A stretch of 64,000 nucleotides of DNA from Armatimonadota bacterium (GCA_037445735.1 JBBIJY010000005.1:59381-123380); one strand, 5' to 3'; shown: positions 57,647 through 61,916, counted from the first letter of the stretch. The notes: generated from the letters alone by a model not told the origin. Program-made: numbers and translations.

Positions 57647-58092
57647 CTCCTGCTCTCTGAAGGTTGTTTTTTCGGCAGGAACTCCTGCCGAATCTGCTCG
57701 AAAGTGAACACCCTGCCGTTGAGGTCGCGCGCTTTGCGCGCCGCCTGATCGCGCGTCGCAAGAGCAATCGTGCGGCTGCCCATCGGCGTCTGAAGATTGT
57801 CCGCCCGCACATAGAACGCCCGCGTGCCGTCCAGCCAGCGGTCAGGCTTTTCGAAGTCATGCACCCAGTAGCGCCGGGGCTGGATGCGTGCGCTATCCAG
57901 CACCATGCAGTTGAGGTCGTCGTATTTGCGCAGTTCGCCCTGCTCGGTTTCAACGGCGCAGGCGTAGGGCGGCTCGTTGATTATCATGCGGCAGTTCGCG
58001 CAGGCGTCCTCCCCGTAGCGAATGGTGGGCGGGCGATCCGCTGGCTGGCAGCCCGCGATCAGCACCAGTATCAGGAGCAGGTAAGCCCTCAT
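57643..58092 (-). CDS. nosL: Copper chaperone lipoprotein NosL
   Basis: Lipobox IAGC; CANCRMII, YDDLNCM, WVHDF and TPMG. It is the C-terminal part of listed ORF 57643..58467. Confidence 0.9.
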   Translation of the reverse strand: MRAYLLLILVLIAGCQPADRPPTIRYGEDACANCRMIINEPPYACAVETEQGELRKYDDLNCMVLDSARIQPRRYWVHDFEKPDRWLDGTRAFYVRADNLQTPMGSRTIALATRDQAARKARDLNGRVFTFEQIRQEFLPKKQPSESRR

Positions 58093-61000
58093 TCGATTGC
58101 CCCCCTGCGCACGAACCAGAGCAGCGCGAGCAGCAACGGAACCGCGACCCACATCAGAAGGATACCCGACAGGATGGGTAAAGTCGCGTCGCCCATCACC
58201 TCGCGCGCGTACAGCCCTGCCGAACCCAGCACCTCCAGATTGCCCTCTATCCCCTGAATCACGGCGAGCTTGAACACCTGCAGCGGGTTGAGCAGGGTCA
58301 GCCAGAGCAGGGTGGACGCCCTCAGCTGGAGCGCGATGGCTGTGCCGATCAGCCCCAGATCGCTGACGAACACCAGCATCAGCCACAGCAGGAGGGCGAT
58401 GCCGACCGCCGTCGCGCCCCGCTTCACCAGCACCGACACGAGCGTGCCCAGCGCCAGACAGCTCCATCCCAGCAGGATGGTGAGCAGGAGCTGGGTCAGG
58501 AAGGGCGCCAGGGGCAGATTCGCGCCCGCCATGTAGATGAGCAACCCGCTGCTGCCGAAGCCAATCAGGATGGCGGCGCTGAGGGTAAGCATGGCGCCGA
58601 GCAGCTTGCCCGCAAGAATCGCTGCAGGGGTGAGCGGCTGAGCCAGCAGGGTGTCGAGCGTGCGCTGATCGCGTTCGGAGGCAATGCTCAGCGCGCCCAT
58701 CAGCAGCCCCATCAGCGGCACAATCAGCAGCGATAAGTTGAGCAAGCTGGCGAAGGTACGCCCGAAGCCTGCTGAACCGCCTGCACCCGTGCCCGTCAGC
58801 CCGAACAGGGTCAACAGCAGCGACAGCAGAATAAAGACACCCATCAGCAGCACCAGCCAGCGGTTGCGGCGGGCATCGCGTATCTCTTTGCCTGCGATTA
58901 ACCCCACCACACGCCGCAGTGGGGTTGTCTCTCCTTTATGCTGGGGGTTGGGGTGGGTATCGTCAAGTGAGGAGGTCAGCGTCGCGAAGCGTCCCGATTC
59001 GGGAATCTGGCTCCAGTCGGGCGGCTCGCTGGGCGGACGCCACTCGTAGTCCAGCACCTCGATGCCTGCCTGCAGCAGTCGGCTAAGCGGCTCCACCTGC
59101 TTCGCCTCCAGCTGGCGAATCAGCAGGGCGCCGTCGAGGGCTTGTGCGTCATAACCCGCTTGCCTGAGAATCTCGATGGCGACCTGCACCTGCTGCGGGG
59201 GCACAGACAGTCGCAGGCTGCCATGCCGTTGCCAGAGCGCGACGAACTGCGCACCTGTCAGCTCCGCCACCTTGCGCCCGCGCTCCAGTACCACCACCCG
59301 ATCGGCAAGCGTGCGCACCTCGTTGAACTGGTGCGTGCAGAACAGCAGCGTTTTGCCCTGCGCTTTGAGCCGCTGCAGCAGCTGGAGCCATTCGGCGCGG
59401 GCAGCGGTGTCCAGATGGGCGGTCGGCTCATCCAGTAGCAGCACAGGCGGGTCGGACAGCAGCGCCAGCACCAGCGCGAGCTTCTGCTTCATGCCGCCCG
59501 ACAGCGCGCTCACGGGCTTGTCAGCATGCTCGCTCAAGCCCCACTCCTGAAGAAGGGCATCGGCACGCTCCGCTGAAACGCCGCGCAACTGCGCATAAAA
59601 CTGGGCGGTCTCCTGCACGCTCATATCGGGATGCAGGTGAACGAGCTGGGGCACATAGCCGACCTGCTGACGGACAGCGGTGCCCCGCTGTTTGACCGAA
59701 TAGCCCAGCACCGACGCTTCGCCCTCAAAGCGCAGCAGTCCGAGCAGGCAGCGCAGGATGGTGGTCTTGCCTGCGCCGTTCGCGCCCCAGAGCGCGACCG
59801 TCTCACCGGCGCGCACGCCGAAGCTGAGATCGTTCACCGCCACCAGCCTGCCAAATCGGCGGGTCAGATGCTCCACTCGAATCACCATTGCGGACTGCGC
59901 TGAACGGCTCGTGAACGCCATCTGGGATGGCTTCCCGGTCGCGATAGGGTGGTATTTTCCCGCTCGCGGGGTGCCCGGCGCCCGCAGGCTCAACAGAGCC
60001 AGCGCGAGCAGCCCCGCCATGAACAGCAGACCCTTCGCTCGCGCGGGCGTCGAAGGTGGACTCATCAGATGAGGCGGCTCGCCCGCCCGCACCAGCGGAC
60101 GCGCGTCCGTCACCAGCGGTTGAGGCGCAAAGAGCGGGAACAGCCGCGCCCCGAAATCGAGCGCCTGCGCCGACGGGCTGTACGCCAGCACGCGCAGCGC
60201 CGCGTTCTGCGCCGTAATCTGATCAAAAACCTTCACCGCCCGATAGGGCACATCGCCGATGCCGTCGCCGTCCGCATCATAGCCCGTGTAATCGCTCCAG
60301 AAGTTGCCTGCCCAGCCTGCACCCACCACCGAATCGGGGCGATCCATCCGCACCGTCTCGATGTTCTCCACCATCCGATTCGCCTCAAAACGGTTCGGCT
60401 TCACCGCCAGCACCAGATGGATGCCCACATCGTTGCGAACAAACCAGTTGCCCCGATAGAGACCCTCGCCGTTGTCAATAAATAGCCCTACGCGATTGTG
60501 CGCCACCAGATTCTTTTCAATCAGCAGGCGGTAGCCATCTTTAATGCCCAGCCCCATGCCGCTCGGTCCGCGCGAGTTCAGAATCTGATTCCCGCGCACC
60601 TGCACCCCCTCGCTATACATAATGTAGATGCCCACCGAGTTGCTCTCCAGCAGGTTGTTCTCCACATGGCTATTGTTGCAATACATGAAGTGGATACCGT
60701 AGCGGCTGTTGCGCACGCGGTTGTTGCGGATGGTCAGCCCCTCCGAATACCAGAAGACCAGATCGCGCCCGCCCACCACCTGATTGCCTTCGATTCGGGC
60801 ATGATGGCTATACCAGAGGCGAATCTGGTCACCGCGTCGGGCGATGGGCAACGCGTGGGAGCGTATCGTGTTGTTGCGAATCAGGGCGCGGTGCGCATTC
60901 TGCAGGTGCACCCCGAATAGCACCTGTTCCAGCCGATTGCCTTCCACGATGCAGTCGGGCGCGGAGACCTGCACGCCGCTATCCTGGGCGCTGAGCGTGG

Positions 61001-61916
61001 TGCCGCTGTTGCGAATGATAAATCCCTTGAGGACGCATCGGGGCGCTTTGAGGTGAATGACGCTCCCCCGCCGCTCGCCGTCGAGGACGGGGGAGCGCTC
61101 GCCCACCAGTGTGAGCGTCTTGTCAACGATGAAGTTGCCCCGATATTCGCCGCCAATCACCCGAATGGTGTCGCCTGCCCGCGCCTGCTGGATGACCGCC
61201 TGCAGGCTCTGGTCGCTTTGCGGGCGCACCACCCACTCATGCGCCCAGCCGTGCAGCAGTGAAGCCATCAGCAGAAGTGTGGCGGCGGCTTTCGCCGCCA
61301 CCGGCACCCGCTGCCGCAACTGCTCGCATCGCAACCGCCGCCGGATGGCGATCAGCGTCAGCACGCCCGCTGCGATCACCACAAAGTAGCCGATGTGGAA
61401 CCACGCAATCACCTGGAACTGTCCCACCCTGCCAGGTCCGACCAGCGGCGGGATAAAGGGCTTAATCATCGCGCTCAGCGGCGCCTTGGGGTCCAGATTC
61501 AAGCCGTACTCGCGCAGCCAGTAATAGAGGTCGCCCGCGAACACGAACGGAACCGCCCACACGGGCAACGCCAGCAGAATCTGGAACCAGCGTGGGGCGC
61601 GCGGAATGAGCATGATGAAAAGCAACGCAAGCGCAATCGCGCTCAGACCGGGCACCGCGATTTTGCGTTCAAAAGGCGCCGCTTCACCCAGCGGACGCAT
61701 GCCGATGTAGTGGTTCAGTCCATCCACCTCGCGCACATCGCCGCCTGCGCCCGTTACATAGACAATCACCTTCAGCCCTTTCGGGTACTGCGGCGCAACG
61801 ATGTGAATCTGCCAGTAGGGCAGCCAGATGGAGGCGAGCACCAGCAACGCCGCGACGCCCAGCATCACTTTGTTTCGAACCTCTCCCGAACAGTGAACAG
61901 TTGTCCGCATCGTCAT
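58089..61916 (-). CDS. NosB-NosD-NosF-NosY fusion protein (1275 aa)
   Basis: NosB-like APQYPKGL...LNHYIGM; NosD beta-helix with SRYGIHFMY and GNFWSDYTGYDADGDGIGDVPY; NosF GANGAGKTT, LSGGMKQK and LLDEPT; NosY KEIRDARRNRW and ERDQRTLDTLLAQP. Confidence 0.9.
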   Translation of the reverse strand: MTMRTTVHCSGEVRNKVMLGVAALLVLASIWLPYWQIHIVAPQYPKGLKVIVYVTGAGGDVREVDGLNHYIGMRPLGEAAPFERKIAVPGLSAIALALLFIMLIPRAPRWFQILLALPVWAVPFVFAGDLYYWLREYGLNLDPKAPLSAMIKPFIPPLVGPGRVGQFQVIAWFHIGYFVVIAAGVLTLIAIRRRLRCEQLRQRVPVAAKAAATLLLMASLLHGWAHEWVVRPQSDQSLQAVIQQARAGDTIRVIGGEYRGNFIVDKTLTLVGERSPVLDGERRGSVIHLKAPRCVLKGFIIRNSGTTLSAQDSGVQVSAPDCIVEGNRLEQVLFGVHLQNAHRALIRNNTIRSHALPIARRGDQIRLWYSHHARIEGNQVVGGRDLVFWYSEGLTIRNNRVRNSRYGIHFMYCNNSHVENNLLESNSVGIYIMYSEGVQVRGNQILNSRGPSGMGLGIKDGYRLLIEKNLVAHNRVGLFIDNGEGLYRGNWFVRNDVGIHLVLAVKPNRFEANRMVENIETVRMDRPDSVVGAGWAGNFWSDYTGYDADGDGIGDVPYRAVKVFDQITAQNAALRVLAYSPSAQALDFGARLFPLFAPQPLVTDARPLVRAGEPPHLMSPPSTPARAKGLLFMAGLLALALLSLRAPGTPRAGKYHPIATGKPSQMAFTSRSAQSAMVIRVEHLTRRFGRLVAVNDLSFGVRAGETVALWGANGAGKTTILRCLLGLLRFEGEASVLGYSVKQRGTAVRQQVGYVPQLVHLHPDMSVQETAQFYAQLRGVSAERADALLQEWGLSEHADKPVSALSGGMKQKLALVLALLSDPPVLLLDEPTAHLDTAARAEWLQLLQRLKAQGKTLLFCTHQFNEVRTLADRVVVLERGRKVAELTGAQFVALWQRHGSLRLSVPPQQVQVAIEILRQAGYDAQALDGALLIRQLEAKQVEPLSRLLQAGIEVLDYEWRPPSEPPDWSQIPESGRFATLTSSLDDTHPNPQHKGETTPLRRVVGLIAGKEIRDARRNRWLVLLMGVFILLSLLLTLFGLTGTGAGGSAGFGRTFASLLNLSLLIVPLMGLLMGALSIASERDQRTLDTLLAQPLTPAAILAGKLLGAMLTLSAAILIGFGSSGLLIYMAGANLPLAPFLTQLLLTILLGWSCLALGTLVSVLVKRGATAVGIALLLWLMLVFVSDLGLIGTAIALQLRASTLLWLTLLNPLQVFKLAVIQGIEGNLEVLGSAGLYAREVMGDATLPILSGILLMWVAVPLLLALLWFVRRGAIE

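Follow-up and report, generated by a model that had tools for sequence, protein, structure and literature searches.

A conserved NosB-NosD-NosF-NosY fusion in the clade II nitrous-oxide reductase cluster of Armatimonadota

Introduction

Nitrous-oxide reductase (NosZ) is, to our knowledge, the only biological sink of nitrous oxide (N2O), and its copper sites depend on the ABC transporter NosDFY together with NosL. A further protein, NosB, has no function known to us and has been reported to be essential in Wolinella. Here we describe a gene from a stretch of 64,000 nucleotides (nt) of an Armatimonadota bacterium (GCA_037445735.1, JBBIJY010000005.1:59381-123380; below, the window), in which NosB, NosD, NosF and NosY are joined in one reading frame at 58089..61916 on the minus strand. 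Several of the claims followed up here come from an earlier note on this DNA, made by a model from the sequence alone.

The closest described system is that of Pseudomonas stutzeri, where NosD, NosF and NosY are three separate proteins assembled as NosD1F2Y2, and Cu(I) passes from NosL via NosD to NosZ (PMC13685413). The earlier note had given the same stoichiometry for the model system, and it agrees both with the review and with the chain counts per NosDFY sequence in the PDB (NosD, 16 chains in 16 entries; NosF, 30 in 15; NosY, 34 in 17). The P. stutzeri system belongs to clade I (Tat) and, according to the literature, is devoid of NosB. NosB of clade II is described as a polytopic membrane protein with four (or six) helices (bioRxiv 10.1101/2024.05.17.594689), which is encoded directly after nosZ and bears LNHYIGM and YGHN as conserved stretches (PMC9697520). 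Its known fusions have other partners than the one described here, namely NosL in Dyadobacter and Flavobacterium (PMC9697520) and the cytochrome NosC2 in Campylobacterota (PMC11409646).

Results

The four-way gene is a single frame conserved among relatives

The gene sits between a Sec-type (clade II) nosZ and nosL. Translation of 58089..61916 (minus strand) yields one uninterrupted frame of 1275 amino acids (aa) without a stop, just as the earlier note had read it, and the segment it had quoted, AAKAAATLLLMASLLHGWA-HEW, is present at residues 207-228 (residues are numbered in the 1275-aa frame throughout). Another genetic code or stop read-through was considered and rejected, since the frame holds no stop. 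A GAGGAGG Shine-Dalgarno (SD) sequence (61924-61918) lies only 1 nt 5′ of the first ATG and 7 nt 5′ of the ATG at 61910, and a public protein collection contains an exact match of 1273 aa, which equals the frame minus its first two residues. Because of this spacing and the 1273-aa record, the real protein probably starts at residue 3 (ATG 61910) and is 1273 aa long.

A nos cluster was found in 10 of the 41 related genomes, all 10 belonging to the window's own family. The four-way frame runs without a stop in six relatives besides the window's genome (G001, G002, G003, G008, G011 and G013). In G015 the gene is cut by the contig end, yet NosB and NosD are fused, and in G012 and G022 a separate nosB is followed by a NosD-NosF-NosY gene. 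An independent contig of 6172 nt, obtained from another sample of the same study and representing a strain about 93% identical, spans the whole gene and differs by substitutions only, with no insertions or deletions. The best-matching sequencing run is a possible source of the window itself and was not counted as support. Beyond these genomes, the same architecture was found in 21 further 90%-identity clusters (147 member sequences; 50-91% identity), whose names include bacterium HR15, Armatimonadetes bacterium DC and GBS, and metagenome-assembled genomes (MAGs) of Fimbriimonadales; the record names of several relatives point to MAGs from hot or boiling springs.

In 19 four-way relatives the domains are 72-76% identical to those of the window's protein and the linkers 15-44%, with lengths changing by whole codons. 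The NosD-NosF linker (mean identity 14.8%) varies from 17 to 40 aa and the NosF-NosY linker from 28 to 61 aa, the frame always being kept. The maintenance of the frame across such variable linkers, together with the conservation of the domains, argues for a selected multi-domain protein.

Since the window stems from a metagenome-derived contig, and the best-matching run may be its own source, an artefact or a decaying pseudogene has to be considered, in which erroneous loss of stops would have merged four genes. This is extremely improbable: all three junctions would need to be in phase, the fusion recurs in the six genomes, the 21 protein clusters and the independent contig, the catalytic motifs are intact, and the domains are strongly conserved. 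The earlier note had held that stop codons at the junctions in relatives would speak against its claim, and had proposed a search for the same architecture elsewhere; no such stops were found in the six genomes or in the independent contig, and the search was successful. Taken together, the results confirm that the four-way fusion is genuine and conserved.

As a side observation, the stop-to-stop frames of nosB and NosD-NosF-NosY in G012 (locus L008) overlap by a few bases; this locus and that of G022 (L007) constitute a natural split control for the NosB fusion.

Domain order and membrane topology

The order of the four domains, their coordinates and the placement of NosD outside and NosF inside, as proposed earlier, were upheld by domain searches, hydropathy and charge (Table 1). 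The NosD part matches TIGR04247 at residues 238-610 (model positions 1-377, 408.2 bits vs. a cut-off of 300) and the Pfam NosD model at 348-545; residues 30-422 of the 436 in P. stutzeri NosD (7o0y_A) align with residues 236-611 (E 2e-33). In the NosF part, Pfam ABC_tran is found at 694-833, and the nearest solved bacterial relative is NosF of P. stutzeri (chain 7o0y_B, over 679-882, E 1.3e-39), with all motifs intact (Walker A GANGAGKT, Q-loop YVPQ, signature LSGG, Walker B VLLLDE, H-loop CTH). The best solved matches of this part are ABCA-type ATPase domains, and no NosF-specific NCBIfam model reached its cut-off, so that the name NosF comes from the context. The NosY part bears ABC2_membrane_2 (PF12679) at 1007-1271 (E 9.2e-26) and has six helices by hydropathy; among solved chains, only 7o0y_D, NosY of P. 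stutzeri, gave a match at E <= 0.01 (E 2.1e-26), over residues 6-271 of 275.

Hydrophobic helices were found at residues 17-35, 86-104, 113-131, 173-191 and 629-647, in addition to the six in NosY, and loops rich in K/R lie on the inferred cytoplasmic side (six K/R in 192-206; four K/R and no D/E in 648-676). Hydropathy and the positive-inside rule agree on a path that begins with a cytoplasmic N-terminus, exposes the NosB loops 36-85 and 132-172 on the outer face, returns inward at 192-206, places NosD outside, and has 648-676 together with NosF on the inside again. Segment 207-225 falls under the 19-residue transmembrane threshold, as expected of a signal-peptide core. It is the former signal peptide of NosD, retained within the fusion; in the relatives with a separate nosB, NosD-NosF-NosY starts with a normal signal peptide, which ends with A-x-A before (K)EW.

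The helix at 629-647 also has its counterparts outside the fusions. A C-terminal hydrophobic helix is present in 52 of 53 NosD proteins unfused to NosF (13 further tails were too short to judge), and to judge by this distribution the anchor is ancestral and predates the fusion. As the anchor is found in nearly all unfused NosD, the NosD-NosF fusion merely joins its cytoplasmic end to the product of the next gene. A C-terminal membrane helix like that of the fusion has been reported for NosD of Bacillus azotoformans (PMC3475470); in Bacillota, however, the order is D-Y-F, and no fusion was seen in the 13 named Bacillales loci examined. P. stutzeri NosD differs from the fusion in that its alignment extends to residue 422 of 436, leaving no room for such a helix.

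A half-transporter that most likely pairs with itself

We consider it rather probable that the gene is a genuine, selected fusion which places the whole membrane copper-delivery machine of clade II nitrous-oxide reductase, together with NosB, on one chain, and that this chain most likely pairs with itself to form B2D2F2Y2. An ABC transporter requires two ATPase and two permease domains, while the fusion encodes D, F and Y as 1:1:1. In the window's own genome, the NosD part of the fusion is the only TIGR04247 match above the cut-off; another NosY (next match E 2.7e-8) or a second NosF/NosY partner gene was not found either. Given the requirement for two domains of each kind, and with no second NosD or NosY in the genome, self-pairing is the most likely way to a complete transporter. 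The homodimer, the two NosD per complex and the hand-over of copper are inferred.

In such a machine, NosB would span the membrane with four helices, both ends being cytoplasmic, and the retained NosD signal sequence would take the chain outward, so that the NosD beta-helix would fold in the periplasm. Helix 629-647 would bring the chain back inside, where NosF would fold in the cytoplasm, and NosY would contribute six helices. The resulting half-transporter would pair with itself to give B2D2F2Y2 with two tethered NosD, and the ATP-driven movements of F2Y2 would, by homology, let NosD take Cu(I) from NosL and pass it to NosZ. Signal peptidase might process the signal-like segment or leave it intact; in the former case, NosB would be freed and NosD-NosF-NosY would remain one chain. 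ABCG half-transporters offer a parallel, as they also carry the ATPase before the permease on one chain and are active as dimers, but they have neither a periplasmic beta-helix nor a tetraspan domain attached.

Two points weigh against self-pairing with two NosD. The sole solved complex contains one NosD per F2Y2 (PMC13685413 and the PDB chain counts). This conflict holds, however, for every NosD-NosF fusion, i.e., for a large multi-phylum clade, which argues that two NosD are workable there; the two might dock together or in turn, or one might be idle. The other point concerns a methionine that 23 of 25 close Armatimonadota NosD-NosF-NosY and four-way proteins have 0-7 residues ahead of the NosF core (counted by eye), which could mean that NosF-NosY is made as a second product. 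In the window's gene this is Met677 (ATG 59888-59886), placed exactly at the expected start of a free-standing NosF (MVIRVEHLTRRFG); if initiation also occurred here, the NosF-NosY chain could join one full-length chain to give B1D1F2Y2, with the same D:F:Y ratio as in P. stutzeri. The methionine has been retained despite the linker identity of only 14.8%, and its chance occurrence within eight residues is about 13% at the family Met frequency of 1.77%. Nevertheless, such mixed products are quite unlikely. Met677 has no SD sequence before it in the window, nor does its counterpart in G002 and G001; in G011, G013 and G012, weak AGGA/GGGA strings are all that precede it, whereas the real start of the gene has GAGGAGG. 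The methionine is absent from three deeper four-way proteins (P0026-P0028), and among 128 NosD-NosF fusions it occupies the aligned site in 8 and lies within -15..+2 in 41, vs. 27.5% expected by chance, none of which goes beyond chance. The 25 sequences are close kin, so that the methionine may be an inherited relic. The internal start near 59888 suggested in the earlier note is thus poorly supported.

Cleavage after NosB is a possibility to be taken more seriously, although we rate it at clearly less than an even chance. Signal peptidase I would cut after G-W-A (residue 225), giving NosB with the spent signal helix and NosD-NosF-NosY as two proteins, and the fusion would then serve only co-translation and co-insertion; such processing can coexist with the self-pairing machine. 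A precedent is the cytochrome b-c1 precursor FbcH of Bradyrhizobium, a membrane polyprotein whose periplasmic domain follows an internal signal peptide; cleavage at this peptide is established there, while in the nos fusion it is a possibility. The segment has the form of a signal peptide: its lead-in is rich in K/R, its core of 12 residues stays short of the transmembrane threshold, and the residues at -3 and -1 are small. Only about 10 residues separate it from the first residue aligned with P. stutzeri NosD. The uncharged stretch is short in fused junctions (median 16 vs. 14 residues in unfused NosD), a small-x-small site is found in 129 of 149 fused and 52 of 62 unfused sequences vs. 62% of random windows, and A-x-A in 52 of 149 fused sequences vs. 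11.6% of random windows (a threefold excess). On the other hand, A-x-A reaches only 35% in fused sequences, against 53% in unfused NosD and 6 of 7 in the NosD-NosF-NosY relatives, and only weakly exceeds composition-matched shuffles (43 of 148 vs. 32.6 ± 4.6), the anchoring of the cleavage site being approximate for distant sequences. Moreover, the site is poor in several close relatives, for instance in ...HASPREW, where Pro follows the small pair, and in ...YGQEQTTW. The earlier note had offered cleavage as a remedy for the D:F ratio; this part of its proposal fails, because helix 629-647 keeps NosD on NosF whether or not the chain is cut.

The N-terminal domain is NosB-like

The N-terminal 205 aa match no Pfam or NCBIfam model, and their identity as NosB rests on the place after a clade II nosZ, the four helices, the LNHYIGM motif and motifs shared with a Sulfurimonas reference. 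NosZ is encoded directly upstream of the NosB homologue in 75 of the 80 genome loci described below, and the four hydrophobic helices agree with the polytopic character attributed to NosB. LNHYIGM lies at residues 67-73; all 24 four-way proteins have it, as do 162 of the 186 stand-alone homologues. The Sulfurimonas NosB-cytochrome c reference (PMC11409646 supplement) shows INHYVGM, WFGHNLH and PFTPVIFGDGKVAQF, as compared by eye and not by alignment. The second published stretch, YGHN, reads YGLN in the window's protein. At its His position the 186 stand-alone homologues have H (47), Q (36), T (16) or L (14), the remainder being other residues or unmatched by the pattern, while L occupies it in 23 of 24 four-way and 75 of 103 NosB-NosD-NosF proteins. 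As far as these sequences tell, the His of YGHN varies across the family and does not behave as a defining residue.

The AlphaFold2 model of the domain (m6afb188cfe15; pLDDT 96.3, pTM 0.89) is a four-helix bundle (helices 12-31, 81-103, 109-139 and 175-203) with a periplasmic sheet formed by both outer loops. A Foldseek search with this model gave no match at E <= 0.001 (best E 1.8e-3). In VIA-align, the top shapes were TARP gamma-7, MP20 and claudins, with Z of 10-11.4 over about 150 aligned residues, which is lower than the Z of about 13 advised for helical bundles. We treat this likeness of the predicted fold to eukaryotic tetraspans as common topology, not as kinship; no solved bacterial relative of the fold was found in the structure searches. 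In a protein atlas, the nearest clusters are named 'hypothetical protein' and come from Gemmatimonadota and Rhodothermota.

The fusion is part of a widespread series

A search of 1.84 billion representatives with the NosB domain returned 854 proteins at E <= 0.001, and the best 150 of them were classified with the window's own domains. NosB stands alone in 103, and 5 proteins have two NosB matches; the others are NosB-NosD (29, including 6 with the NosD match split in two), NosB-NosD-NosF (9), NosB-NosL (2), NosB-NosB-NosD-NosF (1) and the four-way form (1). NosB is thus fused to NosD in 40 of these 150. At the genome level, at least 599 loci encode a NosB relative; the best 80 of these were read as stop-to-stop frames, not as gene calls. 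NosB is a separate frame in 73 of the 80, and in 9 loci NosD and NosF share one frame with NosB separate. NosB-NosD-NosF is found in L027 and L033, and also in L066, where a stop splits off the first NosB-like piece; NosB-NosB-NosD-NosF in a Poribacteria MAG (L046), NosB-NosD in one locus, NosB-NosL in a Bacteroidota MAG (L089), and the four-way form in two loci (bacterium HR15 and the Anaerolineae MAG L057). Forms with B-D, D-F, B-D-F, B-B-D-F and D-F-Y (B, D, F and Y standing for the Nos modules) are spread over Planctomycetota, Poribacteria, Chloroflexota and Armatimonadota.

The NosB-NosD-NosF proteins of Planctomycetota and Poribacteria are close to the four-way form: they fall in the same clade of the NosD tree, have the same junctions and 40-48% identity, and bear only the public name 'NosD'. 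They differ in lacking NosY, and those of Poribacteria carry two tandem NosB. In Poribacteria P0030-P0049 and L046, the tandem precedes NosD-NosF in proteins of about 1150 aa, and the motif of the second copy is degraded (LNRDIGM in P0032). This tandem hints that NosB may act in pairs, as a homodimer would also supply.

The order of events was approached with NosD trees. FastTree of 140 NosD domains, with the B-D-F set thinned to every fourth protein, gave a 58-row clade with a support of 100 in which all members are fused (27 B-D-F, 23 B-D-F-Y, 7 D-F-Y and 1 B-D). IQ-TREE under a site-heterogeneous model, applied to 49 chosen NosD rows, gave a split supported at 99 into 28 vs. 21 rows. The larger side holds 24 NosB-fused rows with four D-F-Y rows nested among them; the smaller side consists of NosD alone or NosD-NosF, plus L057. 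One 17-row clade (99) consists of NosY-fused forms, and the D-F-Y group (100) branches from among the four-way forms. Read with the midpoint as root, the tree suggests that B-D-F came first, that NosY was added to it, and that one Fimbriimonadales branch later separated NosB again; as the root itself was not inferred, this direction is tentative. The window's gene lies inside the all-fused clade, with NosY as the module that appears to have joined last.

The four-way frame at L057:3920-7693 (Anaerolineae MAG SSC4, Chloroflexota) is about 40% identical, has ambiguous bases in its record, and lies on the opposite side of the split from the Armatimonadota four-way clade. Forcing all NosY-fused rows together cost 41.3 log-likelihood units (p-AU 0.006), the group having been named after the tree was seen. 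From this placement, the four-way form seems to have arisen, or to have been assembled, at least twice.

The statement of the earlier note that these are normally separate genes holds for model organisms; for the NosB-bearing family it does not, as fusion is common there by the counts given above (40 of 150 proteins and 9 more of the 80 loci). The note had also named, as grounds against its claim, that the fusion might already be described as common. Common it is in databases, but a full-text literature search, with key subscription papers outside its reach, found no description of NosB-NosD, NosD-NosF or NosF-NosY fusions, and in public records they are simply called 'NosD' or 'ABC transporter ATP-binding protein YxlF'. 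The four-way protein seems to be the end point of a widespread series of fusions that is apparently undescribed in print.

Surroundings of the fusion gene

All nine related loci that extend over this region have the order nosZ-fusion-nosL. The N-terminus of the window's own NosZ is missing because of the contig end. Its G002 orthologue is a full 668 aa, matches TIGR04246 (Sec-dependent NosZ) with 839.5 bits at a cut-off of 625, and has no twin arginine at its N-terminus; the nosZ of the cluster is Sec-dependent, clade II, a class assigned by sequence from this complete G002 orthologue. The hairpin between nosZ and the fusion gene folds as RNA with -25.9 kcal/mol (z -3.53; 0 of 200 shuffles equally good), which suggests that nosZ is transcribed more than the maturation genes, or apart from them.

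The 282-aa gene following nosL contains the C-x2-H-x2-M string CDVHPWM, weakly matches the blue type 1 copper protein 5fc9_A (E 0.0026), and also lies 3′ of nosL in G002, G001 and G008. Its product may be the electron donor to NosZ. No nosC/G/H-type gene was recognisable in G002, the only relative examined upstream of nosZ, where three scanned open reading frames (ORFs) gave no Pfam match. A search of Rfam gave no match in 56000-64000 at E <= 0.1. Farther away, the ORFs 47882-49090 (minus), 54130-55284 (minus) and 55460-56629 (plus) share a dockerin-like C-terminal repeat (DVNGDGVVDDADLL.VLF.FG); their products are probably secreted or located at the cell surface, with no relation to the nos cluster.

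Table 1. Features of the fusion gene and its neighbours (positions in the window)
Feature	Position	Strand	Details
nosZ, C-terminal 647 aa	62056..63999	-	Pfam nos_propeller, Cupredoxin_1, COX2; runs off the window end, which is the contig end
Terminator-like hairpin and T-run	62019..62042	-	3′ of the nosZ stop, ahead of the fusion; 10 pairs (9 G-C) followed by ACTTTTTAGA
Shine-Dalgarno and probable true start	61908..61924	-	GAGGAGG 61924-61918, ATG 61910-61908; read from the sequence
NosB-like domain, residues 1-205	61302..61916	-	Four membrane helices and periplasmic beta-sheet from two loops; LNHYIGM
Signal-peptide-like segment, residues 207-225	61242..61298	-	K/R-rich lead-in, 12-residue hydrophobic core, G-W-A before HEW
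NosD beta-helix, residues 226-625	60042..61241	-	TIGR04247 and P. stutzeri NosD match
Membrane helix, residues 629-647	59976..60032	-	Hydropathy 1.82; predicted to take the chain back to the cytoplasm
NosD-NosF linker, residues 648-676	59889..59975	-	4 K/R, no D/E; hypervariable
NosF ABC ATPase, residues 677-965	59022..59888	-	ABC_tran, 7o0y_B match, intact catalytic motifs
NosF-NosY linker, residues 966-1006	58899..59021	-	Length differs among relatives, always in frame
NosY ABC-2 permease, residues 1007-1275, six helices	58089..58898	-	Includes stop codon 58089-58091
nosL lipoprotein gene	57643..58092	-	Pfam NosL E 4.1e-12; ATG 58092-58090 overlaps the fusion TGA as ATGA
282-aa gene, cupredoxin-like part and CarboxypepD_reg-like end	56798..57646	-	By coordinates, GTG start and nosL stop share 4 nt

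Discussion

In this work, we provided evidence that a four-way fusion of NosB, NosD, NosF and NosY is a genuine and conserved gene of Armatimonadota. All three transporter modules are homologous to those of P. stutzeri NosDFY (7O0Y and related entries), and nosZ and nosL are neighbours in both systems; the same role in copper delivery is presumed for the fusion. The systems differ in that three separate proteins assembled as 1:2:2 are replaced by one chain with a forced 1:1:1 ratio. As to NosB, the domain in the fusion resembles that of clade II clusters in its polytopic character, its place directly after nosZ and its LNHYIGM, but it has NosD, NosF and NosY as partners instead of NosL or NosC2.

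In the sampled proteins, NosB was found fused to NosD, NosF, NosY and NosL, all of which are parts of the copper-delivery module. The link between NosB and maturation of the CuZ site that the earlier note drew is a fair inference from these partners; it is weakened by the facts that the partners are operon neighbours as well and that a NosB-NosC2 fusion exists.

Putting these lines together, one may tentatively picture a symmetric B2D2F2Y2 machine in a large part of clade II, although as a whole this picture is rather unlikely. NosB would serve as an integral subunit, a claudin-like tetraspan platform next to the transporter, with one anchored NosD on each half, and the 1:2:2 complex of P. stutzeri would be a variant, not the rule; NosB would act in copper-site maturation and not only in electron transfer.

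The findings have practical consequences. Surveys of nosB, nosF and nosY by gene name miss fusions that are filed as 'NosD' or as an ABC ATPase. With the whole machine in one gene, and with relatives that by their names live in hot springs, the fusion offers a compact target for heterologous expression, measurement of stoichiometry and cryo-electron microscopy. In terms of biology, the widespread NosD-NosF fusion and the anchored NosD call into question the generality of the one-NosD stoichiometry, and the natural fusions of NosB to NosD, NosF and NosY supply independent evidence that NosB works in or beside the copper-delivery machine.

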